Assembly (NCBI RefSeq): GCF_004010195.1
Contig: NC_057749.1
Coordinates: forward strand, 8,387,423-8,451,422
Reading direction: 5' to 3'
DNA: 64,000 nucleotides
From: Chiloscyllium plagiosum
Lineage: Eukaryota
A program made the position numbers and the translations under genes. Below are positions 1 to 59,190 of the stretch, one piece after another (position 1 is the first letter of the stretch; the number at the start of each line of letters is the position of its first letter). The notes under the pieces were generated by a model. That model worked only from the letters and a program-made list of their open reading frames with translations, made no database searches and was not told the origin of the DNA.

Positions 1-178
1 ACCCTCCTCTAGCTTATCTCTCCACGCTTCAGGCTCACTGCCTTTATTCCTGATGAAGGGCTTTTGCCCGAAACGTCGATTTCGCTGCTCCTTGGATGCT
101 GCCTGAACTGCTGTGCTCTTCTAGCACCACTAATCCAGGTTTTGGTTTCCAGCATCTGCAGTCATTGTTTTTACCTCC
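1..178 (+). mobile_element. Penelope-like element 3' end (family A) with hammerhead motif
   Basis: Same sequence as 59020-59190, which follows a GIY-YIG C-terminus; contains CTGATGA-A-GGGC-TTTT-GCCC-GAAA-CGTC. Confidence 0.8.
44..82 (+). ncRNA. Minimal type I hammerhead ribozyme motif, intact core
   Basis: CTGATGA 50-56, extra A, helix II GGGC/GCCC with TTTT loop, GAAA 70-73, palindromic ACGT, GTC triplet 75-77; helix I weak. Confidence 0.75.
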
Positions 179-1522
179 CAAAACTAAAAGGCAATCGAGT
201 TTCAATTGAAGTTTCTCATCGTGGACTGGTCACATACTTGGTTAAATCCTCCAAAATCATTGACTTGATGAAGCCTTAAGAAATCTCTGTTGACCAACCT
301 AAAACTTGACTAGGTCCTAAGAAAACTGCCAACCTTCTCTATACGTGAAATCACTGTCAATTAACAGTGGCTCTATTAAAACTGCCAAACTGATAAGGAT
401 AGCCCATTCTACATAGCTAACTTGTTGCATATTTTGCTTTTTACTTGCCTCAGAGCAGCGCAGAGATGACATTAATTTCTGAGTGTACAGATGAGCTAAG
501 AACAAGAGCAGGCTGCTCAACCTTTTGAACCTGTTCTGCCTTTCAATAAGAGCAATAGATTTTACTTATAGTGCATTTAACATATCTACCACCAGAAAAT
601 GTCTCCCCTTGTATTAACCCCATTTATACCTTTCTACCTTTCTATGCTTTATCTTCCCTTCAGCTGCAGTTATTATGAATGCCGCCACCAACTGGAGACA
701 TGCACCCTCAGCTACACAGCATCCAAATGTAACGTCACTGCCCAGTGGAGGTGGCACATCCAGAATGGTGGCAGTGCCTGGAACAGAATAAATGGCCTGA
801 GGAACTGACTGGCTCTGCTGACCACAACCCCTCTGCCATTTCCACCCAGGCCCTAGATTGGAGCCATTAGGGAGTGTGAGCGGAAGAGGTTAAGACATCA
901 AGGGGGTTTCTTTCAAAAACAGACCCATTGGTTAAGTGAAGATGGGGTAGAATGTGCATGGTGTTAGTGCTGATGTCACTGTTGTGCAGAATGTGGTGAC
1001 ATCAGCAATGCATCCTGTCGCCTATTCCCTCCAGCTGACATCCCCCATTGGTCCTTGTGTCGGAAGCTATTTCATCAGCCATTTTGGCATTTGAAGCAAT
1101 CTCTTTTCCTTAGCTCTGAGTCCACACCCAGGCTTAACCAACAAAGCATAGTGAACATGGATCAGTTGCCAGACTCCTATAATGGAACACAGAACAAATG
1201 AACTGCTAAACACTGCATTGTCAAACATAAGCTGATGCTCAAAATGTCCTGATTGCAAAGAATTATAAAGTTCCTCACACGATTGAGGACAAATAATTCA
1301 AAACATTTTATTCACACAGCATAACTTTTAGCAATTGCAAAGAATGCACAGCATGGAAAGACCATTCAGCCCACTTAGTCTATGCCAGCATCTAAGCTTT
1401 ACACAAGATAGCTCCACCTTATCCCATCAACACAGGCAGCTACATTTCCTTTCCTCATGCATTTATTTAATTACAACTTAAATTGATCCAAGCTATTCAC
1501 CTCAATTATTCCTTATGATAGC

Positions 1523-1758
1523 TGTAGCAATTGGAACAAGGTCAACCAGATGGACTTATAGAATATAAGTTCCCTGATTGGGAGCTGTTAATCTGGTCTA
1601 CTCAGGGAGCACTGGCTGACAGATAAGAACAGGAGTGCCAGAGGTTCTACTCACTCTGAGATCTGGCTCTGAGCTGGGTGTACCAGTGTCATGTATAGTG
1701 GACGTGTAAATAAAAGATGACTTGGTGATGGGATACTGGCCTTTGTGGAGTGATTTCA
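1523..1758 (+). mobile_element. Solo LTR, short family
   Basis: TGTAG...TTTCA termini, internal AATAAA, homologous to the reverse complement of 3942-4505. Confidence 0.6.
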
Positions 1759-1869
1759 GTTGCAAGTGTCACACTTAGACGAAGCTTTGGGTAAAGACAT
1801 TTCTCTTGAATCCCCTGTTGGAATTTTCTTGTGACTGCTGTATATTCACAATGCCCTAGCCTTGGTCAC

Positions 1870-2030
1870 CTCCCACAAATGGCAGGACAAGTCGCGAGAG
1901 TAGTTAATAAAACATATGATGTGCTCGGCTTTATTCATCGGGCTTTGGAGTACAACAGCAAGGAGGTGATACTTAACTTGTGGAATATAATTGTTAGACA
2001 TCAACTGGAGTAACGTGTACAGACATTATA
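1870..2030 (+). mobile_element. CR1 LINE ORF2 fragment
   Basis: Translates VVNKTYDVLGFIHRALEYNSKEV. Confidence 0.75.
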
Positions 2031-2054
2031 TAAAAAAAAGATGTAAAATAAAAT

Positions 2055-3305
2055 AACTTAACCTATGCACTCCTCAATTCACTGCTATCCATGTGCATGT
2101 CCAGCAGTCACTTAAATGTCCCTAATGACTCTGCTTCCACCACCACCACTGGCAACGTATTCCATGCATTCACAACTCTCTGTGTAAAGAACCTACCTCT
2201 GACATCCCTTCTATACCTTTCTCCTAATACCTTAATACTATGACCCCTCATGCCAGTCAATCCTGCCCTGGGGAAAAGTCTCTGGCTATTGACTCTATCC
2301 ATTCTTCTCATTATCTTGTATACCTCAATCAGGTCACCTCTCTTCCTCCTCTCCAGAGAGAAAAGTCCGAGCTTAGTCAACCTTTCTTCATAAGGCAAGT
2401 CCTCCAGTCCAGGCAGCATCCTGATAAACCTTCTTTGCACCCTCTCCAAAGCCTCTGTATCTTTCCTATAGTAGGGCGACCAGAACTGAACACAATATTC
2501 CAAGTGTGGCCTCGCCAGGGTCTTGTAGAGCTGTAGCAAAACCTCGTGGCTCTTAAACTCGATCTCCCTGTTAATGAAAGCCAAAACACCATATGCTTTC
2601 TTAACAACCCTATCCACTTGCGTGGCAACTTTGAGGGATCTATGTACTTGAACACCAAGATCCCTCTGTTCCTCCACACTGTCAAGAATCCTGTCTTTAA
2701 TCCTATATTCAGCATTCAAGTTCAACCTTCCAAAATGCATCACTTTGCATTTGTCCAGGTTGAACTCCATTTGTCATTTCTCAGACCTGTCTATGTTGCA
2801 CTATAGCCTGCAATAGCCCTCGATACTATCAAATGCATTTACAACCTTTGTGTCATCTGAAAATTTACTAACCTACCCCTCAACCTCCTCATTCAAGTCA
2901 TTTATAAAAACTACAAAGAGCAGAGGCCCAAGGACAGAGGCCTGCGGGACCCCATTCAACACTGATCTCCAGGCAGAATACCTTCCATCTCCAGCCTTCA
3001 GTTAGTTAACCAGTTCTGAATCTAAATAGCCAAATCTCCCGGTTTCCCATATTTCCTGACTTTATGAATGAGCCTACCATGGGGAAACTTATCAAATGCC
3101 TTGCTGAAGTCCATATACACCACATCCACTGCTCAACCTTCATTGACCTGTCTTTTCACCTCCTCAAAGAACTCAATAAGATTTGTGAGGCATGACCTGC
3201 CCCTCACAAAGCCATGCTGACAGCCTTTTAATCACGCTATGCTTTTCCAAATAGTCATAAATCTATCCCTCAGAATTCTTTCCAAAACTTTGTTGACCAC
3301 AGAAT
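2055..3305 (-). mobile_element. CR1 LINE, 5'-truncated (RT to 3' end)
   Basis: ORF 2108-2770 with FNLDKCKVMHFG, RPHLEYCVQFWSP, RGDLIEVYK, FFTQRVVNAWN. Confidence 0.95.
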
Positions 3306-3460
3306 TTACAATAATGCCTCCAGGGAGGAAAAAACTCTGTTTTGAGGATAGATTCAAGAAGTTTGGACTGTTGTCCTTGGAGAGAAGAAGGCTGAATGGA
3401 GATGTGACAGAGGTTTTCAAACTCATGAGTGGCTGAATAGAGTAGATAGGGAGATCAAGC
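3305..3460 (+). mobile_element. CR1 ORF2 C-terminal fragment
   Basis: FEDRFKKFGLLSLERRRLNGDVTEVFK. Confidence 0.8.
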
Positions 3461-3520
3461 AGGCTATGGTAATTAACAAGATAGATTGCACTTCATGTTT
3501 GCACCCAGTTACAGGTTACT

Positions 3521-3588
3521 TTGATATAATAGACACTGTTGCATTGATATAATAGACACTGTTACATTGATATAACAGCACTGTTACA
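3521..3588. repeat. Tandem repeat, ~23 bp x3
   Basis: TTGATATAATAGACACTGTT(G/A)CA units. Confidence 0.9.
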
Positions 3589-11081: not shown

Positions 11082-11270
11082 AGCTTGTATTGGACTGAGG
11101 TGGACAAAGTTAAAACTCACACAACACCAGGCCTTGTTCAACAGGTTTACTTGGAAGCACTAGCTTTCAGAGCGCTGCTCAGCTACCTGATGCAGGAGCA
11201 GCGCTCCGAAAGCTAGAGCTTCCAAATAAACCTGTTGGGCTTTAACCTGGTGTTGTGAGAGTTTTAACTT
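11082..11270. mobile_element. Fold-back Penelope-like element (family B) with hammerhead motif
   Basis: Inverted arms 11107-11180 and 11196-11270; CTGATGC-A-GGAGC-AGC-GCTCC-GAAA-GCTA at 11187-11215. Confidence 0.75.
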
Positions 11271-11607
11271 AATCTCTTGGTGAGTTTGTGTGAGAATGTG
11301 ATCAGTTAAGGCACCTGCCATCAAGCCACAAATATATTTTTAAAAATGCAAATCGAATGATTGGAAATTGTGAATAAAACAAATAGATTTGGACATTAAA
11401 GTGTTTCTATTCAACAATATATGAATCAGGCTACCTTGAGTGATTGCTGCACAGATTGAAGCTTTCATTGTTCTAATACACATGTGACATTATGGATTTG
11501 CACAGTTAAGGACAAAGATTTTGTGGGAGCAGGATATATTGGATTACGTTGAGTTCTGTCAAAGAGCCAGCACAGGTATAATTAGCTAATTAGCTCCTTC
11601 TCTGATA

Positions 11608-11885
11608 AAAAGTAAAATACTGTGGATGCTGGAAATCAGAAACAGACTCAGAAAATGCTGGAGAAACTCAGCAGATCCAGCAGTGGACAGAGAAACAGAG
11701 TTAATGTTTCAAGTCCAATATGACTGTTCTTCAGATCTGAAAGAGGTTGGAAAATGGTGACTTTTATACTTTTCACAGCAGTAGAGCCATCCTTCGATGT
11801 TTCACTGCAGCTGGAGCAGAGAAATAAGAGCTAGATTGACCATCCTGGAGGTCAACAATTTTAAAAGGTATCGCTTCCATTTTCT
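11608..11885 (-). mobile_element. Penelope-like 3' end (family C) with hammerhead motif
   Basis: Minus strand CTGAAGA-ACAGTC-ATATTG-GACTT-GAAA-CATTA at 11734-11701; colinear with 20255-20535. Confidence 0.65.
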
Positions 11886-11904
11886 GTGGTCTGCCCCATA
11901 TTCA

Positions 11905-12022
11905 GGGGTGTGCGTGTTTGTGTGTGTGTGTGTGTTGTGTCTGTGTACTGTGTCTGTAGTGTATGAATGGTGTGTTCATGGTGGTATGTGCGTGTGTACG
12001 CACGTGTGTGTGTGTATGTATG
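11905..12022. repeat. Degenerate (TG)n microsatellite
   Basis: Direct inspection. Confidence 0.9.
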
Positions 12023-13175: not shown

Positions 13176-13500
13176 TTAGATTAGATTAGATTAGATTACT
13201 TACAGTGTGGAAACAGGCCCTTCGGCCCAACAAGTCCACCCCGACCCGCCGAAGCGAAACCCACCCATACCCCTACATTTACCCCTTACCTAACACTACG
13301 GGCAATTTAGTATGGCCAATTCTCCTGACCCTGCACATCTTTGGATGGTGGGAGGAAACCGGAGCACCCGGAGGAAACCCATGCAGACACGGGGAGAACG
13401 TGCAAACTCCACACAGTCAGTCACCTGAGGCGGGAATTGAACCCGGGTCTCTGGCGCTGTGAGGCAACAGTGCTAACCACTGTGCCACCGTGCCGCCCAC
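13176..13500 (-). mobile_element. HE1-type V-SINE, young full-length copy
   Basis: CpG-rich head, V-domain, (TCTAA)n tail. Confidence 0.95.
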
Positions 13501-15070: not shown

Positions 15071-15209
15071 ATTCTGAGCATCAAAGAAATATCTTTCCAT
15101 TATTTTGCTCGTATATTTTCTTTCTCTTTTCCAGTTTCTTGAACTCCATTTCGACAAAATTCTTTTCCATCAGTTTTTCCACCCCCTTCCAGTAGGCTTT
15201 CAGTCTAAG

Positions 15210-15302
15210 TCGATAAAGTGTGGAGCTGGAGAAAGCACAGCAGGTCAAGCAGCATCAGAGGAGCAGGAGGGTCGATGTTTCGGGCAGGACCCTTCATTAG
15301 GA
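15210..15302 (-). mobile_element. Penelope-like 3' end (family A), mutated hammerhead
   Basis: Minus strand CTAATGA-A-GGGT-CCT-GCCC-GAAA-CATC. Confidence 0.7.
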
Positions 15303-15307
15303 CATCA

Positions 15308-15385
15308 CCACATGTCAACGAATCTCACACATCCACATGGCCACGAATCTCACACATCCACATGGCCACGAATCTCGCACACGTG
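15308..15385. repeat. 25-bp tandem repeat x~2.8
   Basis: CACGAATCTCACACATCCACATGGC units. Confidence 0.9.
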
Positions 15386-19915: not shown

Positions 19916-20254
19916 TCATAGACCTCCAGGTCAAAACCTGATTTTTGGGTACGTACAATGCTACTACACTGAGTCAGCATTGATCTCTTGGCTTGTACAA
20001 TGACAGATGTATCAGGCGTGAGGTTACAGATTGTGTTTAAGTACAATTCTACAACTTCTGATAGCACACAGCACTTCATGAACATCTGATCTTAAGTTGC
20101 TAGATCTGTTTGGAGTCTGTAAGGATGATCAGCCATGATCATATTGAATGGTGGTGCAGGCTTGAAGGGCAGAATGGCCTACTCCTTCACCTATTGTCTA
20201 TTGTCCCGTTTTAGGACTGTGATTGATAGTGCCACACAACACGGTGGAAGGTAA

Positions 20255-20535
20255 TGAAAGCAAAATACTGCAGATGCTGGAACAAACACAAAGAACATTG
20301 GAGAAACTCAGCAGGTCTCGCAGCATCTGTGGAAAGAAAGAAACACCGTTAACATTTCGAGTCCAAAATGACTCTTTCTTCAGAAGTGAAATGGGTTGGA
20401 AAATAGTGGTTTTGATACTTTCGACAGAGGTGAAGGTATCCTTTTCTGATGTTCATCTCCAGCTGGAGGAGAGACATTGAGAGATGGATTTACCATCCGG
20501 CAGACTTACACCTTTAAGAGGTTTGTCTCCCATTT
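20255..20535 (-). mobile_element. Penelope-like 3' end (family C) with hammerhead motif
   Basis: Minus strand CTGAAGA-AA-GAGTC-ATTTTG-GACTC-GAAA-TGTTA at 20383-20349. Confidence 0.7.
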
Positions 20536-20934
20536 ATGAAGAGCAGCCCCATATTGAGGTGACTCTTCTTCAGACCTGTCAGCAATGGAAGGTATCCTCA
20601 GTTTGAAGGTGGGACTTCATGTCTGTCAGAACTGTGCGTGGTCTCTGTCACTATCGATACTGTCATGAGCAGACACAACTGCAATTGGTAGATCCCTTTT
20701 GTTGATTCCCTCGTCTTCTGCCACAGGCCCAATGTAGTAGCTACATCCTTTAGTACTTGGCCACTTTGGCCAGTAATTTAGAGAGATCTCCTCAACTTGT
20801 ACATAAAGAAACCTCAACTCCCTGTGAATTCGTAGGTGTTACAAATGATGAAACATGAGTTTCCAAAGACTCAAAGCAGACTCTATCTTTGCAAAGAAGG
20901 CATCAAGAGAGATATCATCTCCCCACCATTGGTA

Positions 20935-22107: not shown

Positions 22108-22395
22108 AGATTAGATTAGATTACTTACAGTGTGGAAACAGGCCCTTCGGCCCAACAAGTCCACACTGACCTGCCGAAGTGCAACCCACCCATACCCCTA
22201 CACCTAACACTACGGGCAATTTAGCATGGCCAATTCACCTGACCTGCACAGCTTTGGACTGTGGGAGGAAACCGGAGCAAACCCACGCAGACATGGGGAG
22301 TATGTGCAACCTCCACACAGTCACCTGAGGTGGGAACTGAACCCGGGTCTCTAGCGCTGTTAGGCAGCAGTGCTAACCACTCTGCACTGTGCCTT
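22108..22395 (-). mobile_element. HE1-type V-SINE
   Basis: (TAGAT)n tail and head on minus strand. Confidence 0.9.
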
Positions 22396-22429: not shown

Positions 22430-22632
22430 GTGGAGGTGCTGGTGTTGGACTGGGGTGAACAAAGCTACAGATCACACAACACCAGGTTATAGTCCAACAG
22501 GTTTATTTGAAAGTACAAGCTTTCAGAGCACTGCTCCTTCAGAGGTAACCTGACGAAGGAGCAGCGCTCCAAAATCTGGGACTTTCAAATAAACCTATTG
22601 GACTGTAACTTGGTGTTGTGTGATTGTTAATT
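22430..22632. mobile_element. Fold-back Penelope-like element (family B)
   Basis: Inverted arms; CTGACGA-A-GGAGC-AGC-GCTCC-AAAA at 22550-22574. Confidence 0.75.
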
Positions 22633-23234
22633 TTTTGAACAATTGCGGTCCATTTAGTGTGGGGCTGATTATAATGCTTTTAGGAAGGGAGCTCCAGGAC
22701 TTTAATCCAGCAACACTGAAGAAACAGTGATATATTTCCAGGTCAACAGTGAGTGGTTTGGAGGGGAATTTATAGATCGCAGTGTTTCCATGTACCAGCT
22801 GCCTTTGTCCTTCCAAATGGTGGAGATCATGGATTTGGAAGGAGCTGTCAAAGGAGTCTTGCTGAATCGCTGCATTGCATTTTGTGGATGGGGCACATTG
22901 CTGCCACTATTCAGCAACGATGAAAGGAAAGCATTTTTGAACTGTTGCATGGTTGGTGCTGCATTATCTTTGATAGCATTGAGTTTCTTGAGCATTGTTG
23001 AAGCTTCACTCATTCAGGTCAGTGGGAAACATTCTATCACAATCTTTGTCGATGGTAAACAGGCTTTGAGGAGTCAGGAAGTAGTTATCAATGCAGAATT
23101 ACTGCTCTGTACTCACGGTGTTTATATGATTTGTCCAGTTCAGTTTCTGATCAATGGTAACCTCCAGAATGTTGATAGAGGGTAAATCGGTGATGGTAAT
23201 GCTATCAAGTGTCAAGTGAGATGGTTGTTGGAGT

Positions 23235-23537: not shown

Positions 23538-24712
23538 GGCATTGGCCAGCACACATGTGACACAAATGTTACTTTTTACTAACATTTAATTAGCCCAAGC
23601 ATGGACGGAGGAACTACAGAACAGAAAAAGGTTACTTCACCCAATTGGCCCATGGTGTTTCTGCTCCACATCAGCCTCCACCCATCCAACCACATTGAAC
23701 TCAATCAGCATTTCCTTCTATTGCACACCTTTCTCTGTTATGTGCCTCCCTATCTTCCCCTTAACAGCACATGCCATTTCCCTCAACCTTTCCATATTGG
23801 AGTGAATTCTCTGTACTTGCCAGGTAATGAATGGTCTCTTCATTCTTGACGAATACCCCTTCTTACATTGCAAATGACTACACTGGAAAATTATTTCATT
23901 GACTGTAAAGCACCTCGGGATCTCTTGGGGCTATGAAAGTTGCTATATAAATGAAATAGTTAATTTCCTTTTAATGTTGTCTTCTCCAAACCTGTGTTTA
24001 ATCCTCTCTTCTACCTTGCAATTTCAAAAATGTAGCCCACTATAGCATATCCTTAATATCCCTTTTGCAAGAAAACATTTCTGCTAATTCCCTCTAATAG
24101 TATGTTGGTATCTCCTTGTTACTCTGTACTGACTGCTAGATATGATCTTTCACTGCTTGCATGTCAAACCCTTAATTTTCAACAATTCCCTTAGATCCAC
24201 TGCCTCCTTTAATCTCCCTGTGTCATTGAGCACAGTTTGGCATTTTCAATCTTTCATCACATGTGTATCACCCTGTCTGGTAATAACACGGTGAGTTTAT
24301 GTCATACCTTCCCATCTCTCTGATGTTCCATGATGAGGTGACCATAACCGAGCACACACTGTTCCAACTGTGACCCAGGCAATGCAGAACATCAAAGATC
24401 TGACAAGACAAGGTTACTATTGAACATCAAGGTTTGCTGATATTCATCAACCTCTTGTGTTTTGCTCAGTCACTTTAGCAAGTACTCAGAATTCTGGTTT
24501 ATGACTTTATAGTTGATTGACACTCATTGTTAGAGAGATGGGAGTGGAGGATAGAGATTTATTGAGGGAGAGCTGGGATAACTGATGAATGTGAATTCAA
24601 TCTGGTGTCCATCATATTGCAAGTCCTTAGCGAAAAAGCAATGAGAGTCAGTTATTTGCAATCTTTCTGGCTTTTTTCATACTAAATCTCCCAATTAATA
24701 GAGAGTTGACAT

Positions 24713-24800
24713 AAGCTACCTGACAAAGGAGCAGCGCTCCTAAAGCTTGTACCTCCAAATAAACCTGTTGGACTATAACCTGGTGTTGTGTGATTATTAA
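24713..24800 (+). mobile_element. Family B single arm, decayed hammerhead
   Basis: agctacCTGACAA-A-GGAGC-AGC-GCTCC-TAAAGCTT...cctggtgttgtgtgatt. Confidence 0.7.
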
Positions 24801-25524
24801 TTGACTCCATAACTGAAGCTTAACCTCCCGAATGTCGCATTCAATTCCTCTGACAATAAAATTCTTGCTTTGCATTCCTCAGGACACAATCAAGAATGCC
24901 AAATTTCGAAGGGTACTGATGGGTTGGCAAGTCAACTCAGCTTGGCTGAGGCTTTGCCAGGGAGAATATTGCCAGGGGAGCTTTGGCAGGTTTTCCAGCT
25001 GAAGTTAAAACTTCCTGAATCTTTGAGAAGTTGGAAGTGACTAATTGTAGGAGTCTACTCTCCATGGAGTGTTTGCTGTTTGTAAATAAGTTACTACAAG
25101 TCTGAGTCTTTGTTTCTGTCAATGTGAGAGAATCTTTTTACAGAACAAATTACTGTAGTGCAAGGAACAGCACTCTGAACACATGAAGGTTCCAGTTCAG
25201 TGGCTTTTTATTCAATTGTCACCAAACATTTTGAGTAAAGAGAATTATTGCAAAGGTACCGAAAAAGAACTCAAACATGGTGAGAGCTCAGATCCAAACA
25301 GTTCTGAGGCAGGCCATGTTTTAGAGTCACGGAGGCATACAGCACGGAAACAGATCCTTTGGTCCAACCAGTCTGTGCCAACCATAATCGAAAACCAAAC
25401 TAGTCCCATCTGCCAGCCTTTGGCCTACATCCCTCCAAATATTTCTTATTCATTTGCTTATCCAAATGTCTTTAAAATGTTGTAATTGTACCTGCAGCCA
25501 CCACTTCCTCTGGATATTCATTTC

Positions 25525-31439: not shown

Positions 31440-31845
31440 GGAAGAGTTCAGTGATGAAGAGAGATTGGACAGACTAGTGTTGTTCTCCTTATATCAGAGG
31501 AGATTGATAGAGGACACAATTGAGATGTGTAAAATTATAAGGGGCATAAGTGGGGCAAGCAGGAGGAAGCCTTTCCCCTTGATGGAGGGATTGATGTCCG
31601 AGGGACATAGATTTAAGGGAAAGGGCCTGGGGTTTAGAGGGGGAGGTGAGGAAGAAGGTTTTCACCCAGAGGGTGGTGGGAATCTGGAACTCGCTGTCTG
31701 TAAGGATGGGAGAGGCAGAAACCCTCACGAAATTTAAGCCAAATTTAAATGTGCACTTGCAATGCCAAAGCCTACAGGCCAAGTGCTGGAAAATGGGGTT
31801 AGAATGGACTGTTGGTTGTTTTTGACTAGTGCAGACTTGTTGGAA
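31440..31845 (+). mobile_element. CR1 3' end
   Basis: LDRLVLFSLYQRRLIEDTIEMCKIIRG. Confidence 0.8.
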
Positions 31846-31851
31846 TTCTTT

Positions 31852-31945
31852 GTCAAAAGATGTGCTGCTGGAAAAGCACAGCTGGTCAGGCAGCATCCAA
31901 GGAGCAGGAGAATCGATGCTTCGAGCATAAGCTCTTCATCAGATT
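31852..31945 (-). mobile_element. Penelope-like 3' end (family A variant) with hammerhead
   Basis: Minus strand CTGATGA-A-GAGC-TTAT-GCTC-GAAG-CATC at 31942-31914. Confidence 0.7.
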
Positions 31946-32599
31946 TATTTTTGGGTGCCGTTGTCCTAAAACTGTCATCCTTACCTGGTCTGGCCTGCAT
32001 GAGACTCCAGACCCACAGCAATGAGCTTGACCCCGAACTGCCCTCCAAGCACTTAGGGATGCGCAGTAAATATTGGCCCAGCCAGTGACATCCACACCCC
32101 CGAACAATTCTTTTCAGAAGTGTCCGAGTGTGAGTGATGTTCAATCCAGCTTAAGGGAAGGAGGGAGAGGAGCTGTGAGCTAAAAGATGCATTTAATGAG
32201 TAGATAATGACTCAGTGAATTAAACATCTTCTGCAAGGCATCTCTATAGAGGCTAACACTTATATTAAGCACAGGAACCAACCATTGGCAAGGATCCCAA
32301 ACCCGTATCAGCATATTTGGGCTCATATGCAGAGAAGGTGGAACTTGCTACCACATGAAGTGGTTGAGATGGAGCCACAGAGATCTACAAGCTTGAAAAG
32401 GCCCTTCGGCCCATCACAGTTTCCAGAATATGTCCATTAAAGGGGAAGCACGATACATGGAGGAGAAAGGAAAGCTGATGGGGTGAGAGGGGTCTCATGC
32501 CACACATCAACACCAACATACACCAACTGAGCTGAACAAGCTGCCTCTCCACTATAAATAATGTGCAGCCTCCCCTCATTATCCCCAGCTTCACTGTCA

Positions 32600-33344: not shown

Positions 33345-34065
33345 TTACTAGAGTCATTAATTGCAACAAAGGACATATGTAGAGAGACCGGATCAGTTAG
33401 GAATGTATTCACTGGAGTTTAGAACAATGAGGGTGGGAGAAAGTGGGGACTGCAGATGCTGGAGATCAGAGTCGAGAGTGTGGTGCTGGAAAAACACAGC
33501 AAGTCAGGGAGCATCTGAGGAGCAGGAGAATCGACGTTTCAGGCATAATCCCTTCATCAGAAATCACTTATGCCCGTAACTTCAATTCTCCTGGTCCTCG
33601 GGTGTTGCCTAACCTGCTGTGCTTTTCCAGCACCATACTCTCGACTCTTCATCAGCAATGCCAAGAATGAGGTGAGATCTCACAGAAACCCACAAAATTC
33701 TAACAGGATAAGTGCAAGAAAGATGTTCCCAATGACAATGGACTTCACAATTAGGGATCACAGTCTAAAAGATTCAGGGTAGGCTATTTATGACTGAGAT
33801 GAGGAGAAACATGTTCTGCCAGAGAGTGGTGAGCTTGTGGAATTCTCTCCCACAGAAATTGACTGAGGTCAAAACATTGAATGTTGTCAAGATGGAGTTA
33901 GATATAGTTCTTAGCTCTCTAAAGAGATCAAAGGTTTGGATGGGGGAGGTGTGGGGGGTAAGCAGGAACAGGGTACTGATTTGGATGAACAGCCATGATC
34001 ATATGGAATGGCAAACTATGGTCGAAGGGCTGAATGGACTATTCCTGCTCCTCTTTTCTATATTC
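33345..34065 (+). mobile_element. CR1 3' end interrupted by a fold-back element
   Basis: YVERPDQLGMYSLEFRTMR|...EMRRNMFCQRVVSLWNSLP. Confidence 0.85.
33438..33650. mobile_element. Fold-back Penelope-like element (family A)
   Basis: Arms agagtcgagagtgtggtgctggaaaa / ttttccagcaccatactctcgactct; minus strand CTGATGA-A-GGGATTATGCCT-GAAA-CGTC at 33560-33533. Confidence 0.75.
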
Positions 34066-34999: not shown

Positions 35000-35462
35000 A
35001 AATGATTATTGCTGGACTGTTAGTCCAGAGACCCGAGTAATGTTCTGTGGACCTGGGCCCGAATCCTGCCGCAGCAGATGGTAGAATTTGAATTTGATTA
35101 AAACCTGGAATTAAGAGTCTAATGATGAGCATGAAACCATTGCTGATTGTCAGGAAAAACCCATTTGATTCATTAATGTCCTTTAGGGAAGGAAACTGCC
35201 ACCTTTACATAGTTTGACCTACATGCGACTCCAAACCCACAGCAATGTGGGTGACTCTTAACTGCCCTCTGGATCATTAGAGATGAAGGGCGAAAGTGAG
35301 GATTGCAGATGCTGGAGATTAGAGTCGAGAGTGTGGTGCTGGAAAAGCACAGCAGGTCAGGCAGCGTCCAAGGAGCAGGAGGATCGACAATTCGGGCAAA
35401 AGCCCTTCTCTAGAGATGGTGGTCCAGTCAGCAATGCCCTCATCCCGCAAATGAATAAAAAG
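35000..35462 (+). mobile_element. Second SINE family with family A Penelope end nested at 35290-35412
   Basis: Shared body and tail; insert aaagtgagg...ttcgggcaaaagcccttc. Confidence 0.75.
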
Positions 35463-39200: not shown

Positions 39201-39929
39201 ACCTTGCTGTTTGTTTACTACCTTGCTACCTCTATCGTCACCTCCCTCGTCTGTGTTAAACGTAAAATCAATCAACCAACAAGAATGTTTCAGCTGTTTG
39301 CCACACCTCCCCCATATGGCTCAGAGTGGGATTTGCTGATTCCCGTGAAGCACCTTGCGATGTTCCCCAGCTACAAAGGCACCACATCAATCTGGATTGT
39401 TGTTGGCGTCTGTCAGGAGCGAGAAAGTGGGTGGGATTTTGAAGCTTGCCAGAAAAGTTAAAGCACAAAACAAGTAATTATTCGACACAATAGCTGCACT
39501 TCTGCCAACATACAGCAACTCAACTATCTCTGAGCTGCTAGGCAGCTTAGTTCTCATAAAGGGTTTTCACATTCCATCCTCTATAAAAGCTGATGTGTGC
39601 AAAGCTAAACTGCCCTTGCCTAGCCCACACCATAATCTGCTCCTATGCTGCATTGACATTCCTGGCCAGCCAAACCAGCTTTTATCCTCGTTTGCAAATC
39701 CCTCCAGTCCTTGTGCTCTCTCTCTCTCTCTGTCTTCAAAACTCTGTTGCAGTTTGACAAATCCAATTTCCCATGATATTTTGTCTGAAACACAACAGGT
39801 TCTCAAGAGCCCTATGATTCTGAACACTCTTGCAGTCCTCTGGAACTTTGCACAGCTCCCAGGATTGGGCTCTGCGATGTCTGGAACAATGCTGCCCTCT
39901 GCTGAATCCATGGGCAAACAGCAGGCCCC

Positions 39930-40225
39930 ATTTCAGAAACAGAAACACAAACTGCTGGAGAAACTCGGCAGGTCTGCAGAGCAAGCAGAGTCAGCCTTTC
40001 GAGTCCAGTGACCCTTCTTCAGAAATGTAAAGGGAAGTTGCAGGCAAAACCCAATCTGGCAGCATCTGTGGCAAGAAAAACGCAGTTAATGTCTGGAGTC
40101 TGGTCACTCTTCATCAGTTACTGGAGTCGAACTGTTTAATCTGTTTCTCTCCCTACAGATGCTGCGAGACCTGCTGAGTTTCTCCTGCATTCTCTGTTTT
40201 TGTTTCAGATCTCCAGCATCCACAG
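39930..40225. mobile_element. Family C Penelope-like ends, duplicated and fold-back
   Basis: Minus strand CTGAAGA-A-GGGTC-ACTG-GACTC-GAAA at 40022-39997; inverted arm 40140-40225. Confidence 0.65.
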
Positions 40226-40227
40226 CT

Positions 40228-41395
40228 AGATAGAGTAATAGAGTTCCACATCAGGGAAACAGACCCTTCGGTTCAAATCATCTATGTCAGCCAAGTTGCC
40301 CGAACTAAACTAGTCCCACTTGCCTGTGTTTGGTCCTCTTTCCTACTCATGTACCTGTCCAAACCTCTTTTCAATGTCGTACCTATTCCTGTATCTAGCA
40401 CTTCCTCTGGCAGCTCATTCAATACCCGCACTACCCAATGTGAAAAGGTTGCCCCTCAGGTTCCTTTTAAATCTTTCTCCTCTCACCTTAAACCTATGTC
40501 CTCTAGTTTTGAACTCCCTTATCCTGGTAAATGCTGTTCACCTTATCTATGTTCCTCATGATTTTTATAAACCTCTACAAGATTACCCCTCAGCATCCTT
40601 GAAAAAAGGACCCAGTCTATCCAGCCTCTCCTTACAACTCAATCCTTCCAAACCCGGTAACATCCTTGTAAATTTTGACTGCGCCTTCTCCAATTTAACA
40701 TCTTTCCTGTAGCAGGGCAATCAGAACTGTACATTGGTGAGGCCAATTTTGGAATACAACGTCCTGTACAAACCCAAGCTGACCTCTCAACTCCTGTACT
40801 CAATGCACTGACCAAGGAAGGCAAGGGTACCGAACACCTTCTTCACTCTGTCTGTGCGAGACACAACTTTCAAACAACTATACACCTGCATCCCTCGGTC
40901 TCTTTGTTAACTACACTCCCCAGGGCCCTGCCATTAACTGTATAAGTCCTGCCCTGATTTATCTTTCCAAAATTCAACATCTTGCATTTTTCAAAGTTAA
41001 AGTCCATCTGCAACTCCTTGGCTCATTGGCCCAATTCAGAAAGATCCCTTTGTAATCTTCTTTGCTGTCCACTATGCCAAACAATTTTGGTGTCATCCAC
41101 AAACCTACTAACCATGCTTCCTTTATTCTCATCGAAATTGTTTTTACAAATTGTGAACAACAGTGGACACTGCTGGTCACAAGCCTCCAATCTGAAAGAA
41201 ACCCTCCACCACTTTCCTCTGTCTCCTACCATCAAGCCGATGCTGTATCCAATTGGCTAGATCCACCAGACCACATGTGATCTAACTTTACTAACCAGTA
41301 CACCATACAGAACCTTGTCAATGGTCTCACTAAAGTCCATGGCAACGACATCTACCCTCTGCCTTCATCTATCCTATTGGTCATATCCTCAAATA
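40228..41395 (-). mobile_element. CR1 LINE RT to 3' end
   Basis: LLFTICKNNFDE...SRFVDDTKI; tail. Confidence 0.9.
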
Positions 41396-44689: not shown

Positions 44690-44900
44690 TATTGTCAGTA
44701 ACCATCTAACTAGTGCAATCTCCACAATGACACGCCTCTACAAATTGGCACACAAATCACACTCTCCTCTCGTACGTGTATTGTTTTCCCTTTCATTGAT
44801 ATTCCTTGCACATTGTCCTGATGAGTGCAAGACCAAAATGTTTATCAAAGTGCATCCTTCTTTCCAGCAATATTGATGTCTGCACTGCCAGACGATGTCT
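44690..44900 (+). mobile_element. Possible Penelope-like end (family D) with decayed hammerhead
   Basis: ttgtcCTGATGA-GT-GCAAG-AC-CAAAA at 44813-44838. Confidence 0.4.
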
Positions 44901-48345: not shown

Positions 48346-48569
48346 GGATTTTTTTGGAATCGCAGGGAATGCCAAATTCCAATACAAAAAATCTACAGAA
48401 TTGTTGGGTCAAAATTCCTGAATTCACTCCCTTGTGAGTCAACCTACAACACATTGGCTGCGACGGTTCAAGAAGTAAGCTCACCCCCACCTTCTTAAGG
48501 GGCAACTAGGGACAGACAATAAACACTGGTGCTGACAGCGAGACCCATTTCCCAATAGTGAATAAAATC

Positions 48570-48700
48570 ATTCTTGACGAAGGGACTTTGCCCGAAACAT
48601 CGATTTTCCTGCTCCTTGGATGCTGCCTGACCTGCTGTGCTTTTCCGGCACCACTCTAATCTAGACTCTGATTTCCAGCATCTGCAGTCCTCACTTTTGT
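48570..48700 (+). mobile_element. Penelope-like 3' end (family A), mutated hammerhead
   Basis: TTGACGA-A-GGGA-CTTT-GCCC-GAAA-CATC at 48574-48601. Confidence 0.75.
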
Positions 48701-49804
48701 CTGAATAAAAAAACTCGTCCAGTGACATTAAGCCACCAACATCCCTGACTCGTAGGGACATTAAGGCAAGGGCAGGAGCTCAGTTCATTTCTCAGGCTCC
48801 TGACAACCCGAGAAGGTAAAATTGATGGGCCAGAGCCAAAGATTGATTCATACGTGTCGACACTGAAATCGCTTAACATAATTTTTTTTTAGCAAGAGCG
48901 CAAATCTCGGTCGTGTTTTACGTTTGTAAAGCTCTGATCATACCACCTGTCCCGCTGGAGCCTTCAGCACAGTTGCGTGTTGTCACCTCAATAGGGCTGA
49001 TGTGGCAGGTGGGAAATGCAAGGATGTGCAAACAAACCTCTTGACTAATGAGATGTCTTTATTGGAATGAACGGTGATTTGTATCTGAATGATTCATTCA
49101 AATGGCATCCTTAAACACACACAGGGTTCTGAAGCTAATAATGTGTGCTCATCTGCACAGCTCTGCTCCCTAATTCATTTCCGCATTAGAGGCAGCATTT
49201 GTGTTATGACAATAGCATCAGTCTTGCTCATTATAGTAAAAATGTTACATACATTATACAATCTTACATAAATGATATGCATAATGCCCTGCAAATGATT
49301 GGTTTTGAAAAATGTATTCTTCAGCAGTCAAATCCCGTCCCTGCCAACGTACTCAATTATACAAGGGGCTTCAAACCTGGAGAGAGGCTGCATATTATCT
49401 GCAATCTTCTTAACTCCAAAAGACCTTGAAGTGCAGCCAAAAACTGTTAAGAAGAAATCAGAGTGACTCAGGGCGTTGCAACTTCAGTGGTGTCCCATTG
49501 GTTAGACAATCGGAGGTGGCAAGCCGGCATTGTGATCGAAGCCACAGTCCTCGGGAAAACACTAGAAGGTCAACTAGTACTGTAGGTTAGTTCACAACGT
49601 AGACTGACACACGTTCAATTCTCACACCAGCTGAGGCTACTGTGAAAGTCTTGCATTCTCAATTGTATCCTTTGCCATGACCCTCATGTTAAGCCACCAC
49701 CATCAATATGTGTGTGTCTCTCTCTCTCTCTCATGATCAATCTCTTGATTTAACACATCGAATGCGTTCCATTGGAATGTGTCCTCTTTGTTGCTGTCAT
49801 CAGG

Positions 49805-51420
49805 AGTTGAGAAAGAGGCGGGGAAAACTGTCCCAACTCCAGGAAAGTATGCAGAACCTGCTCCTGCTGCAGACGATGGGGAGTCAATGTCACGGAGGTG
49901 AAGGGCCAGCAAGCCTCACTCTTTGCCTCGGAGGCCTCCAAGATAATCTTCTGGCCCAGGGTCCGCTCCGTGGAGCAGGACGAGACGTGCTCACGTTTCT
50001 TCTTCCAGAAGGTGCACAAAGAGAGCTCTGTGCTCAGCAGCCTGAAGGAAGAAGATGGCTCGATAACGTCATCTCAGGCTGATGTCATGAGGATCAGTAA
50101 ATCCTTCTATGCCAGTCTGTACGACGCGAAGCCGACCAACAGCGCGGCCTCCCAGTCTTTCCTGTCCTCTATCACGGAGGTCTTAGACGACACAACACGG
50201 GAGAGGCTGGACCAGCCGCTATCTCTGGACGAGCTGACCAAGGCCCTCGAGTCCTTCGAAAAGAATAAAACTCCTGAAAGTGACGGCTTACTGGTCGAGC
50301 TCTATTCTGCTCGGTGGGACTTGATTGGCCAGGACCTGCTCAAGGTGTATGTCAGTATGCTTCGGGCAGGTACCATGAGTGAATCCATGAGGAAAGGCAT
50401 CATCACCCTCACCTACAAGCAGAAGGGGGAGAGGGAGGAAATCAGAAATTGGAAACCAATCTCACTATTGAATGCAGATTACAAAATCTTGTCAAAGGTC
50501 ATCGCCAACTGGGTCAGGTCTGCTCTGGGATCGGGCAGGCAGATCGCTGAGAGTCTCGCACTCCTCAGGGGATACGATCGCCTACGTGGAGGACAGGCCT
50601 GCCTCATCAGCCTGGACCAGGAGAAAGCCTTTGACAGGCTATCACACATATATATGAGAGATGTTCTCTCCAAAATGGGCTTTGGGGAGGGAATCTACAA
50701 TTGGACCAGATTGCTCTACACCAACATTGTCAGTGCAGTCTCAATCAATGGTTGGGAAACAGATAGCTTCCCAGTCAGATCTGGAGTCAGGCAGGGCTGC
50801 CCTCTCTCTCCTGCCTTGTTTGTGTGCTGCATAGAGCCATTTGCCGAATCAATCAGGAAGGATGCAAGCCTGAGAGGGGTGACAATTCCTGGCAGCGGGG
50901 GTCTGCAGGTTAAGGTCTCCCAGTACAAGGATGATGTAGCCGTTTTCTGCTCGGATCCGCTGTCCGTGCGCAGACTCATGTGCATCTGTGACCAGTTCAA
51001 GCAGGCCTCGGGGGCCAAGGTCAACCAAGGCAAGAGCGAGGCCATGCTCTTCGGGAACTGGGCCGACCAATCCTCCAACCCCTTCACCGTCAGGACTGAC
51101 CACCTGAAGGTGCAGGGTATTTGGTTCGGGGGGGCTGGGGCATGCGCCAAGTCTTGGGAGGAGCATATCAAGAAGGTGAGGCAGAAACTGCACAGATGGA
51201 AGCTACGGTCACTCTCCCTCGCGGGTAAAAACCTGGTCATCAGGTGTGAGGCACTGTCAGTGTTACTATATGTGGCACAGGTCTGGCCTATTCCCAGAAC
51301 CTGTGCCGTCGCAGTCACCTGGGCCATCTTCCAGTTTATGTATATGTATGTATGGCATGACCGATTGTACAGACCATCAAAATATTTTATGAATAAAGTA
51401 TATTTTGAAATTTAAAAAAA
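49805..51420 (+). mobile_element. Tx1-like (L1 clade) LINE, 5'-truncated and internally deleted
   Basis: GC-rich ORF2 followed by AATAAA at 51393 and an A-tract. Confidence 0.9.
49898..51415 (+). pseudogene. Tx1-like ORF2 reverse transcriptase (505-aa open frame, damaged)
   Basis: NWKPISLLNADYKILSK, SLDQEKAFDR, GVRQGCPLSP, YKDD at the catalytic motif; no endonuclease or zinc knuckle. Confidence 0.9.
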
Positions 51421-53172: not shown

Positions 53173-53346
53173 AATAATAAAAGCAAAATACTGTGGACAC
53201 AGGGAAAATGCTGGAGAAACTCTGCAGTTTCTACCAGACCTGAAATATTCATTATTTCTCTCTCTCTCTCTCTCCACAAATGCTGCCAGACTTGCTGAAT
53301 TTCTCCAGCATTTTCTCTGTGTCCACAGTATGTTGCTTTTATTATT
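53173..53346. mobile_element. Fold-back element (family C)
   Basis: ~47-bp near-perfect terminal inverted arms AATAATAAAAGCAAAATACTGTGGACACAG / CTGTGTCCACAGTATGTTGCTTTTATTATT. Confidence 0.75.
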
Positions 53347-55095: not shown

Positions 55096-56745
55096 TGCTG
55101 TCGGCAAATTGTAGCAGACCAAGGCAATCTGGGAGGCTGAAGAAGATGGGTACCATGTAGTAATGGGGGGGGTAACATAACAAAGAAAGTAGAAACAGTT
55201 CTGTAGGGCAAAGACAGACTTCCAAAGGCCCCACGTTGCCTACCTGATGCCAAGATTAAGGACCTCTCTTCCAGACTGGACAGTAACTTGGAATGAGGGA
55301 GTCAGGATCCAGTTGGCATGATTCGCAAAGGACAGAGGAAGAATTTGGAAAGAGGTTCCGCTTCAGAATTATGAGGAACTTGTAAAGCAGGACAATAAGT
55401 GAAATAATCTGTAGATTACTACATGAGCAATACACAAATTGGAGTGGGGTAAAAAGGATGAGAGGGGTAAATGAGTGATTCAAAGATTGGTTTAAGAGAA
55501 ATGGGTTCTGATACATGCAGAATTAGCACTGGTACTGTGAAAGAGAGAGCTGTTATGTTTGATTTGAACCAGTATCCAGGTGAATCGGACAACTCGGGGT
55601 GTGGATCAGGTTTAAACTAATCGTGCTAAAGTGGGGAGGAGGGGAGAGGATTGAAGACATGTTTAAAATGTCAGAAAGGAACAAAAGTGTATACATCCAG
55701 GTGGTGAAGAGACGAATGATAATCGGGGTGTGACAGAAAGGAGCAGAAAATATAAGCAGAAGAGGATAGCCAGACGTTAGAGCAACAGTCAGTAATAATG
55801 CCAAAACACCAAAGCTTCAGGCTGTTGACGGCATAAATAGAAATAAACAAATATGATTTGATAGCCATTGCAGAGACGTAGTTGCAGGGTGACCAAGACA
55901 GGGAACTCAATGTTCTCAGGAAAATAGGCAAAAGAGGAAGGAGGTGGGGTAGCTTTGACAACAAAGGAAGGTATTGGTGCAATGATAGGGAGCAATATAG
56001 ATGCAATCGTTTGCGATGTGGAATCAGTTTGGGTGAAAATATGGAATAGCAAGGGAAAGAAGTCACAGGTGGGACTCGACTACAGGTCCTCAAAGAGGTG
56101 ACTTACTGAGGGACAAAATATAAGTAAGGAAATATTGGGGGAGGGGGGGTGTAAGCAAGGCACTACATTGCCATGGGTGCTTTTACCTTGTATATTCACT
56201 AGGGAAATCAGACTGGCAAGGGTAACAAGGAAGATAAATTTTACAAATGCATCAGAGATTGTTCCTTGGAGCAGTACATTGCAAACCTGCCCACAAGCAG
56301 GCACCTTTAGAGCTAGCAATGTGTAAAGAGGTTGGATTAAAAAAGTGAACTGGTGGTTATGGATCTTCTAGGGAGTAACAATCACAACATGGTAGAGTGT
56401 CAAATTCAGTTTGAGGAAAAGCAACTAGAGTCTCAAACCAGTGACTTCAATTGAAATAAAGTCAACACAGAGATATGAAGGAAGAGTTGTCTGAAATGGG
56501 GTGAGAAATTAGACCAGGGGGAAGGTCAGAATCTGAGCAGTGATAGAGGTTTAAGCAGAAACTTTATAAGGCTTAGCAAAATTTCATTGAAAAGAAGGAC
56601 TGACTGAGAAGGATAAACCACCTGTGGTTTATAACATGGTCAAGGAGATTATCCAATCAAAACCTAAGGCATAGAAAATGCTGAAAAACTAACTTTTCAA
56701 GGAGCCATCAGCAGATTACTAAAAAAAAATTAAAAAGTGAAAAAA

Positions 56746-57080
56746 TTGAATCCCTACAGTGTGGAAACAGGCCATTTGGTCCAACAAGTTCACACTGACC
56801 CACCCAGAACCACTCCCCTACCCTATTACTCTACATTTACCCCTGACTAATGCACCTAACCTACTCATCCCTGAACATTATTGGCAATTTAGCATGGCCA
56901 GTTCACCTAACCTGCACATCTTTGGACTGTGGGAGGAAACTAGAGCACCCAGACGAAATCCACGCAGACACGGGGAGAATGTGTAAACTCCATATAGACA
57001 GTCGCCCTAGGCTGGAATCGAACCTGGGTCCCTGGCATTGTGAGGCAGCAGTGCTAACCACTGAGCCACCATGCTGCCCA
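56746..57080 (-). mobile_element. HE1-type V-SINE nested in CR1
   Basis: Full head, V-domain and tail. Confidence 0.92.
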
Positions 57081-57969
57081 CTTTTGAAAGTAAATTAACA
57101 AGAAATATAAAAACAAATGGCAAAAGCTTCTACTGTTATATTAAAAGAAAGAGAGTAGCTAAATTATGTGTGGGATGTAAAGGAAGAGGGATAATTTAAA
57201 TCAATATTTTACATTGGTCTGCATGGTGGAGAATACTATAGGCATTCCAAAGATATCAGAAAAGGAAGGTACTAATGGGAGGAAACCTCTTCTAACAGTC
57301 ACAAGAGGTGAACTATTTGAAAACGAATTGGACTACCAGAGGACAAGTCACCAGGATATATTAAGCAGAGGTGATGAAGGGAAAGCAGTAGTGTGTTTTG
57401 CTTTCCACAAGACATTCAGTAAGATGCCATATGAAAGGTTATTGCACAAGATAGAACCATGTGGTTTTAGGGTGATGTATTAACATAGACTGAGGATTGA
57501 TTAACACACAGGAAACAAAGGTTAGGGATTAATGGGGTTTTTTTTCAGTTTGGAAAGTCTTATCTAGCAGAGTGCCACAAAGATCAGTCTTAGGGCCTCA
57601 ATTATTTACCATCTATATTCATGACTTGGAGAAGAGGGCAGAAAATAATTTATCCACATTTGCTGATAATATAAAAATAAATGAGAGGGCATGTTGTGGT
57701 GAGGACATAAGGAACCTATTAGGAGATAGGTTGCAAGTATAGCTTGGGCAAAAACTTGGCAGATGGAGTTTAATGTAGGAAAGTCTGAGTGTGAGGTCAT
57801 GCACTTTGATAGGAAGAATCAAAATGCAGACTATTATTTAAATAGAGAGAGAGACTTCAATGAAGGGTGGCACAGAGGGCTCTGAGTGCTCTTAAAACAC
57901 AAACTGCTGGCATGCAGGAGCACAAGGCAAATTGAATTTTCACTTTATTTGCTAAGGAGATGAAGCTTT

Positions 57970-58570
57970 CCTTCCTTCATTCACAGGATGAGGTATTGCT
58001 GGTTGGGCCAGCATTTATTACACCTCATATTCTGACATGGGACCCTGCAACCACGCAGGATAAATGTGGATTTCTACAGCTTCCTCATTTCCCCTTTCCT
58101 CTCACCGCCCCCCGTCCACCACATTATCCCAGACCCAAACTTCCAACTCGGCACCACCTTCCAGACCTGTCCATCACTAACCCTCTGACCTATCACCTTC
58201 TCCCTCCCTCGGATGCTGCCTGACCAGCTGCGCTTTTCCAGCACCACACTCTCGACTCTGATCTCCAGCATCTGTAGTCCTCACTTTCTCCCAGTATTTA
58301 TTACCCATCACTAATTACCCAGAGGGCAGTTGAGAGTCAATATTGCTGTGGGTCTAGAGTCACATGTCAGCCAGACCTGGTAAGGACAACAGCCTCCTTC
58401 CCTAAAGGAAATTAGTGAACCAGATGGGTTTTTCAAACAATCAACAATAGTTTCATGATTCAGATTTTAATTGAATTCAAATTGCACTATCTGACATGAC
58501 AGGATTTGAGCACAGGTCCCCAGAACATTTGTTGGATTAATAGTCTAGCAATAATACCATTAGGCCTAAA
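57970..58570 (-). mobile_element. Second SINE family with nested + strand Penelope end (58020-58292)
   Basis: Insert translates HLIF*HGTLQPRRINVDFYSFLISP; hammerhead segment deleted. Confidence 0.7.
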
Positions 58571-58724
58571 ACTACCTTATTAAAAACAGGGAAGTCCTGT
58601 CCAGGGTGAGGGTGAGACCACATCTGATGCATTGTGGCAAGGTTTGGTCCTAATATTTAAGAAAGGATGTCTTGAAGTTAGAGGATATTGAAGAGATTCA
58701 CTGGGCTGAACTCTGAGATGAAGT

Positions 58725-59190
58725 TGGGCCTTCTCCTCCCTCACCACCCAACGCCTGGAGGAAGAATGCCTCATCCTCCGCCTCGGAACACTTCAACCCC
58801 AGGGCATCAATGTGGACTTCATCAGTTTCCTCATTTCCCCTTCCCCCACCTCACCCCAGTTCCAACCTTCCAGCTCAGCACCACCCTCATGACCTATCCT
58901 ACCTGCCAATCTTCCTTTCCACCTATCCACTCCACCCTCCCCTCTGACCTATCACCTCCATCCCCACCCCCACTCACCTATTGTACTCTATGCTACTTTC
59001 TCCCAACCCCCACCCCCCTCTCATTTATCTCTCCACTCTGCAGGCTTCCTGCCTCTATTCCTGACGAAGGGCTTTTGCCCGAAATGTCGATTTTCCTGCT
59101 CCTCGGATGCTGCCTGGCCTGCTGTGCTTTTCCAGCACCACTCTAATCTAGACTCTGGTTTCCAGCTTCTGCAGTTCTTGTTTTTACCTC
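58725..59190 (+). mobile_element. Penelope-like element: GIY-YIG C-terminus, 3' UTR and hammerhead
   Basis: Frame from 58740 reads LTTQRLEEECLILRLGTLQPQGINVDF; ctctgagatgaagttg occurs on both sides. Confidence 0.85.
59055..59093 (+). ncRNA. Minimal hammerhead ribozyme motif, intact core
   Basis: CTGACGA 59061-59067, A, GGGC-TTTT-GCCC, GAAA 59081-59084, TGTC. Confidence 0.7.

Follow-up and report, generated by a model that had tools for sequence, protein, structure and literature searches.

Motifs of the Penelope-type minimal hammerhead in three interspersed repeat families of Chiloscyllium plagiosum

Closest described systems

Penelope-like elements (PLEs) carry minimal type I hammerhead ribozymes in the repeats that flank them, and such motifs are also dispersed across metazoan genomes (Cervera & de la Pena 2014, PMC4209133). 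Here these and related systems, as described in the parts of the cited papers that are drawn on, are compared with a stretch of 64,000 nucleotides from Chiloscyllium plagiosum (contig NC_057749.1, positions 8,387,423 to 8,451,422), called the window below, in which a first-pass annotation had listed about 14 hammerhead-like motifs. The >80% consensus of the published PLE motifs reads NNN CUGANGAH G..C GAAAN-palindrome-NUH NNN, with helix I strands of 3 nt (PMC4209133, Suppl. Fig. S3). Beyond the descriptor used for its search, the same paper describes families related by compensatory changes, an extra unpaired nucleotide after A9, a G10.1-C11.1 pair and a palindromic 15.2-16.2 pair. Thousands of copies were reported in fish, coelacanth and Xenopus genomes, and cleavage in vitro was low and took place in dimers or trimers only (PMC4209133). 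Large numbers of PLE minimal hammerheads are known from many animal genomes, and what they do there is a matter of debate. No cartilaginous fish is included in the structural-alignment supplement of PMC4209133, and our search of the literature on hammerheads with shark short interspersed nuclear elements (SINEs) or Penelope brought up no publication on these motifs in cartilaginous fish. PLEs and hammerhead retrozymes were reported in the one cartilaginous fish sampled in a 2026 preprint (10.64898/2026.07.22.740005).

The Poseidon-type PLE of Anolis carolinensis (PAc) is known from biochemistry, whereas the elements of the window are known from sequence alone. The PAc protein cuts and extends both DNA strands; reverse transcription starts internally, just downstream of the hammerhead, insertions end in a 'tail' beyond, and mutation of the hammerhead does not prevent insertion (PMC11167929). 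An adjacent inverted 5'-truncated copy is a typical structure of PLEs (PMC8557442). The Sm-alpha and Sj-alpha elements and the retrozymes unrelated to long terminal repeats (non-LTR retrozymes) are, like the repeats of the window, short non-autonomous repeats with a type I hammerhead, and they co-occur with PLEs (PMC6765202, PMC7229834). Their hammerheads, however, are canonical with loop-loop contacts and often stand in tandem, whereas those of the window are minimal, dispersed and non-tandem. The Rfam family Hammerhead_1 and its related families have the catalytic core in common with the window motifs, whereas none of their models matched here.

It was found that the motifs of the window are of an already known kind, being essentially the published PLE-type minimal hammerhead in three further families, and that the copies in which they lie were retroposed. 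We consider it probable that the sites are copies of three short retroposed families, the progenitor of each of which carried a PLE-type minimal type I hammerhead. In the window itself, most copies are decayed relics rather than working ribozymes. What the window adds is three well-defined families, of which at least one (family A) is extremely abundant in the genome, and a clean contrast between families, in which the fixed bases of the core are kept, the free base varies and the stems co-vary.

Three families and the covariation of their stems

The sequence was read at all 14 listed coordinates, and repeats were defined by BLAST and nhmmer inside the window. By this analysis, 13 of the 14 sites were members of three interspersed repeat families, with seven sites in family A (50+, 15300-, 31942-, 33560-, ~35410-, 48574+ and 59061+) and three each in family B (11734-, 20383- and 40022-) and family C (11187+, 22550+ and 24720+). 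Four further copies or arms were absent from the list, namely a B copy at 40117(-), C arms at 11180(-) and 22551(-), and an A arm at 33567(+). Families A and B were homologous across the motif and a shared 3' domain of ~100 nt (family A profile against the B copies, E 2.7e-07 to 3.2e-05, and also in the reverse search); the 3' part of family C was unlike that of A and B. The fourteenth site, 44818(+), was rejected as a motif and taken as a chance occurrence (Table 1).

For the comparison of single positions, a table of 13 copies was made, from which the truncated A copy at 35410 was left out and to which the B motif at 40117/40118 was added. Pairs were tallied by a script anchored on the core, because in motif alignments made with MAFFT both helix II of the B copy at 20383 and the family C GAAA were misplaced. 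The core (C3 U4 G5 A6 N7 G8 A9 / G12 A13 A14, A15.1-U16.1 and H17) was intact in 5 of the 13 copies, and also in the majority sequence of every family. N7, the sole free position of the core, was also the sole core position that differed between families (U, C, A). An unpaired A between A9 and 10.1 was present in every copy (AA in 20383), and the G10.1-C11.1 pair in 11 of them.

In helix II, 55 of 58 cells of the 13-copy table were paired. Compared by family, pair 2 was GC or AU, pair 3 was GC or AU, and pair 4 was CG, UA or GC; the variants were GGGC/GCCC (50 and 59061), GAGC/GCUC (31942), GGAGC/GCUCC (all three C copies) and GAGUC/GACUC (20383). Helix III was a palindrome without loop 3, reading ACGU in A, AGCU in C and AUGU in 20383, the sole B copy that keeps the pair. 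The 15.2-16.2 pair was CG in A and GC in C; it read CA in five of the 13 copies and UG in two, which is the pattern expected from CpG decay of an ancestral CG (ACGU). The cleavage triplets were GUC in A, GUU in B and CUA in C, all of the form NUH. Both helix II and the 15.2-16.2 pair change by compensatory pairs between families, and a core that is kept while the stems co-vary supports selection on the hammerhead in active progenitors.

The architecture matched the published consensus (PMC4209133) feature by feature. Like the PLE minimal hammerheads, the motifs of the window have the core CUGANGA...GAAA, an unpaired nucleotide other than G after A9, the G10.1-C11.1 pair, a helix III that is palindromic at 15.2/16.2 and lacks loop 3, an NUH triplet and, less clearly, a short helix I. 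As in the published cases, one genome holds several consensus families with compensatory changes, and the copies are mostly single, dispersed and truncated, some being paired on opposite strands. Unlike the published motifs, family A has a helix II of 4 bp in place of the usual 5-8, and helix I falls short of the consensus; no complete PLE was observed in the window, and most A copies begin exactly at helix I.

A strict descriptor matched the window at three sites (50+, 59061+ and 20383-). It demands CUGANGA followed by 0-2 additional nt, a hairpin with 4 bp or more in the stem and 3-8 nt in the loop, then GAAA, paired bases at 15.2/16.2, U and H. In 200 dinucleotide-preserving shuffles the mean number of strict matches was 0.015 and the maximum 1, and none of the 200 reached three. 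With a looser pattern the window yielded 12 matches (8 distinct sites), where 3.85 were expected. Because copies within one family are not independent, the comparison between families is a stronger argument than these match counts.

Much of the first-pass annotation was confirmed by this comparison, including the covarying helix II, all four helix II variants that it quoted, and the extra A after A9. Its count of about 14 motifs is reduced to 13 real family members by the chance heptamer at 44818, and its '3-4 families' are best put as three, since homology between A and B extends across the entire motif and the 3' domain. The palindrome that it gave for helix III, ACGU or AGCU, holds for A and C but not for the B copy at 20383. 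As for the description of the motifs as 'intact or mutated', five of the 13 tabulated copies were without core error, the three sites named above passed the strict descriptor, and the site at 35410 proved to be a 5' truncation inside the core.

Abundance, retroposition and the ends of the units

Public reads were compared with positions 58700-59400 (701 bases) at a likeness of at least 85%, and 111,875 contigs of one public DNA run from the same organism matched. The summed word depth was ~0.58 million over 59036-59059, climbed 7.4-fold to 4.3 million over 59060-59083 and reached 11.6 million over 59108-59131. Loose ends were observed in 531 contigs before 59057 and in 352 contigs before 59066; the flanks at these ends showed low agreement (0.32-0.35) and were AT-rich. 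The depth step and the loose ends place the start of most family A copies at AUUC, which forms the 5' strand of helix I. Among the majority letters, T was found for C at 59065 in 92% of the depth, restoring CUGAUGA, and C for T at 59085 in 65% of the depth, restoring GAAACGUC.

Family A is extremely abundant, and a discrete unit of ~135 nt is its dominant form. The first-pass annotation had proposed a very large ribozyme population; the huge abundance of the A motif makes this a reasonable guess for the motif family. Most copies of the window are decayed, and only three pass the strict descriptor. Since the window copies are mostly dead, 'ribozyme population' overstates the content of the window. 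The exact pattern of the family A motif had 0 matches in each of the metagenome, prokaryote-genome and viral contig collections.

The copy at 58727-59187 is flanked by a 16-bp target-site duplication (TSD) at 58711-58726 and 59188-59203, and duplications of 8 or 9 bp were found at three other elements (Table 1). With TSDs of 8-16 bp and 5' truncation, the copies are retroposed. No poly(A) tails were found on copies in the window, no tandem arrays of A, B or C units, and, by ARAGORN, no tRNA-like sequence; the units begin with the hammerhead. Five head-to-head inverted pairs were observed, one of family A and two each of B and C. In three of them the second (+) arm begins inside loop 2 (33567, 40119 and 53232), with a larger part of the unit in the first arm. 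The loop-2 junction of the second arms seems to be non-random. Inverted head-to-head pairs, 5' truncation and missing poly(A) are traits which suggest an origin of the elements from PLEs, either as their 5'-truncated ends or as non-autonomous derivatives.

Two other arrangements were considered and rejected. Family C as a miniature inverted-repeat transposable element or foldback DNA transposon was ruled out because the single arm at 24711-24810 starts precisely where the palindromic pairs have their centre. A PLE tandem made of the three minus-strand A copies, which lie 1.6-1.85 kb apart, was rejected as well, the intervening sequences being unrelated except for other repeats.

In the window, as in PAc, a conserved 3' domain follows the hammerhead, and the targets of PAc are AT-rich as well (PMC11167929). 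The insertion of PAc hammerhead mutants fits the relative at 58030-58290, in which the 3' domain is present without a hammerhead. The PAc open reading frame (ORF) begins at stem II, whereas in the window the nearest conserved ATG lies ~45 nt downstream and opens a frame of ~30 codons. Together with the 5' boundary at helix I, the hammerhead-less relative with the same 3' domain offers a handle on the role of the hammerhead in the PLE life cycle.

The ATG lies in the conserved GGATGCTGCC of the 3' domain, and the frame that it opens, MLPDLL.. (58212-58290, 33436-33515 (-) and 20250-20326 (-)), runs without a stop as far as the end of the element in most copies of A and B and is stopped after 14 codons in the copies at 59061 and 48574. 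This frame could be the start of the ORF of a parent element; its length of ~30 codons is not significant. Upstream of the shared parts, short ORF tails were found in two copies (58722-58841 and 58036-58098).

It was also observed that an A copy (35278-35418) and the hammerhead-less relative (58013-58304) were inserted ~8 nt apart in two copies of one host repeat, which points to either a preferred target or just the great abundance of that host repeat. The long A copy at 58727-59187 sits in an older repeat (58600-58726 and 59188-59338), the frame of which continues across the insertion, with ..YLRKDVLKLE.. before it and ..LNRLGLYPRAISRMRDDL.. after it. We take this frame to be the C-terminal part of the ORF of a long interspersed nuclear element (LINE).

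The progenitor motif would have consisted of a helix I strand of 2-4 nt, CUGANGA, an unpaired A, a helix II of 4-5 bp, GAAA, a two-base palindromic helix III and an NUH triplet, and would have been a hammerhead of the kind known from the pseudo-LTR or 3' region of PLEs. The ~100-nt domain 3' of the hammerhead, present in A, B and the hammerhead-less relative, may have been the part for recognition and priming by the reverse transcriptase (RT), and priming on both cut DNA strands could have produced the inverted pairs. In active multi-copy transcripts, two motifs would pair through the palindromic ACGU or AGCU to form an extended helix III. Cleavage of the paired motifs would follow 3' of GUC in A, GUU in B and CUA in C, in a reaction that is probably slow and assisted by protein. 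Cleavage of minimal hammerheads as dimers was reportedly described by Lunse et al. in 2017.

Table 1. Coordinates of the hammerhead-bearing copies, inverted pairs and related features of the window
Feature	Coordinates	Strand	Remarks
Family A long copy, cut by window start	1..176	+	Hammerhead 46-81; predicted cleavage after C77 (GUC); core intact
Family A long 5'-truncated copy	58727..59187	+	ORF tail (ends near 58841), ~215 nt untranslated, hammerhead 59057-59092, ~100-nt 3' domain; core intact; 15.2-16.2 is U.G
Family A short unit, begins at helix I (AUUC)	48566..48703	+	C3 -> U; helix II weakened; 9-bp TSD
Family A head-to-head inverted pair	33436..33648	.	Minus arm 33436-33568 with full motif, core intact, helix II weak; plus arm 33567-33648 begins inside loop 2
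Family A short unit	31816..31947	-	Helix II GAGC/GCUC, compensatory variant; A15.1 -> G
Family A copy, 5'-truncated inside core (begins at G8)	35286..35410	-	A14 -> U; 8-bp TSD
Family A short unit	15172..15308	-	G5 -> A
Family B copy, motif 11734	11601..11906	-	Core intact; pairs 10.1-11.1 and 15.2-16.2 broken
Family B copy, motif 20383	20250..20560	-	Core intact; helix II GAGUC/GACUC; AA after A9; passes strict descriptor
Family B copy, motif 40022	39901..40038	-	Helix II pairs with one G.U; helix III and cleavage triplet mutated
Family B head-to-head inverted pair	40040..40240	.	Minus arm motif 40117, G12 and A14 mutated; plus arm from 40119 begins inside loop 2
Family B head-to-head inverted pair, no complete hammerhead	53176..53343	.	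Plus arm begins inside loop 2; weak miRNA-like Rfam hairpin
Family C head-to-head inverted pair	11101..11279	.	Plus arm motif 11187, A9 -> C; minus arm core deleted
Family C head-to-head inverted pair	22459..22639	.	Plus arm motif 22550, G12 -> A, H17 -> G; minus arm without UGA of core
Family C single arm	24711..24810	+	Begins at point matching centre of palindromic pairs; G8 -> A, G12 -> U
Relative without hammerhead	58030..58290	+	Family A long-copy ORF tail joined straight to shared 3' domain; 9-bp TSD
Isolated CUGAUGA heptamer, outside the system	44818..44846	+	Bare heptamer; no helix II, no repeat family

Hammerhead or inert stem-loop

The alternative that survives best, which we nevertheless hold to be unlikely, is that the copies are LINE-dependent, SINE-like repeats, in which the 5' stem-loop flanked by CUGAUGAA and GAAA never cleaves and serves, for example, in protein binding or RNA stability. 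It draws on several of the results in this section, which weigh against a hammerhead in the progenitors. No Rfam hammerhead family matched the whole window at the gathering score or with E up to 10, and no hammerhead match was obtained with the stretch 20-130 alone (111 nt). The proposal of the first-pass annotation that ordinary repeat annotation would miss the motifs therefore holds for annotation based on Rfam, and a ribozyme census of such genomes needs a dedicated descriptor.

The minimum-free-energy fold of the A motif contains the helix II hairpin; in the same fold U4-G8 lie paired with 15.2-1.1, a feature that competes with the active structure and would suit a stem-loop that never cleaves. 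From the reading of the per-copy sequences, this competing pairing is not conserved in B or C, and it therefore does not explain the conserved core. Helix I is weak throughout: family A has 3 standard pairs of 4 (AUUC/GAUU), B pairs consistently at 2.1-1.1 and 2.2-1.2 only, and C has 3 pairs in its best copy; undecayed copies are few. Eight of the 13 tabulated copies carry one or two point changes in the core. An inert stem-loop does not sit well, however, with majority sequences that keep all 13 fixed core positions despite differing stems, N7 alone varying. The poor cleavage in vitro of the published PLE minimal hammerheads agrees with an inert stem-loop, whereas the extra A, G10.1-C11.1, the palindromic 15.2/16.2 and the NUH triplet fit the consensus published for them (PMC4209133).

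The absence of a PLE ORF is in favour of the SINE-like repeats. No PLE RT or GIY-YIG ORF was found in the window, where Pfam covered 13 of the 64 stop-to-stop frames with at least 110 aa plus 8 shorter ones, and a motif scan all 437 frames of at least 55 aa. The 38-residue ORF tail upstream of 59061 had no Pfam match at E up to 10, and the 56-residue frame that includes the tail had no match at E up to 0.01 in a large protein collection. The tail may resemble the C-terminal E..I...P.G.N block of GIY-YIG nucleases. The only clear RT of the window, a 534-codon frame at 49811-51415 (+) (Pfam RVT_1, E 2.8e-27), is joined to no hammerhead copy, and by its motifs it looks to be of the LINE type. The match to the PLE-type minimal hammerhead stands for the RNA motif; no PLE RT or GIY-YIG ORF was found with it in the window or in the protein search.

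The manner of insertion speaks on both sides. TSDs of 8-16 bp would also suit LINE-type priming, and most A units begin right at the motif, as a discrete SINE would. This start lies 4 nt before C3; random 5' truncation would not predict it, and hammerhead cleavage would leave a 5' end at 1.1, unlike the start observed. On the other hand, the units have no tRNA-like head, and head-to-head pairs are typical of PLEs and not of LINE or SINE insertion (PMC8557442). In one poly(A) single-cell RNA run, 2,627 reads matched, in both orientations, and 97% of these continued into sequence unlike the element. That run, a weak test, showed no accumulation of molecule ends at the predicted cleavage site. 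The RNA reads fit passive read-through transcription.

A second alternative, distinctly less likely than the first, is that the repeats are non-LTR retrozymes, that is, tandemly repeated units which bear canonical type I hammerheads and spread by way of small circular RNAs. Retrozymes occur beside PLEs in the one cartilaginous fish sampled and are related to PLE pseudo-LTRs, and monomeric derivatives were common in the same survey (10.64898/2026.07.22.740005). The units of the window, however, form no tandem arrays and are dispersed, with their own TSDs, and their helix I is open without loop 1, so that the canonical loop-loop contacts (criteria of PMC7229834) are missing. A chance resemblance multiplied through repeat amplification could draw on the dependence of copies within a family and on the listed site 44818, which is indeed a chance heptamer, but the shuffles with the strict descriptor (0.015 expected per window) and the comparison of three families, which keep one core and one architecture with different helix II sequences, make it very unlikely indeed.

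The preferred reading, in which the progenitors carried a PLE-type minimal hammerhead, does not by itself account for the sharp helix I boundary of the A units or for the starts of arms in loop 2. If the A boundary is not simply the start of a SINE-like transcript, there is a small chance that the folded or dimerised hammerhead sets the end of reverse transcription or a template switch. If so, the ribozyme fold would shape PLE insertions, both the ends of units and the inverted pairs, beyond RNA processing or no role.

Some minor observations concern the surroundings of the copies. The inverted pairs fold as long hairpins, the C pair at 11101-11279 with -114.3 kcal/mol. In a permissive Rfam scan, weak matches to miRNA families were seen at 53186-53333, 33473-33642 and 11151-11222, the best being MIR6224 with an E of 0.038, far below the gathering score; these are artefacts of the long hairpins. 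Other abundant SINE-like families (D1-D14) fill the window, for example at 13350-13500, 22254-22385 and 56931-57079, and presumably resemble elasmobranch SINEs. The 5' side of the B copy with the motif at 11734 adjoins a (GT)n run (11908-11962), and that of the A copy at 15300 adjoins a 25-bp tandem repeat in 3 copies (15308-15381).

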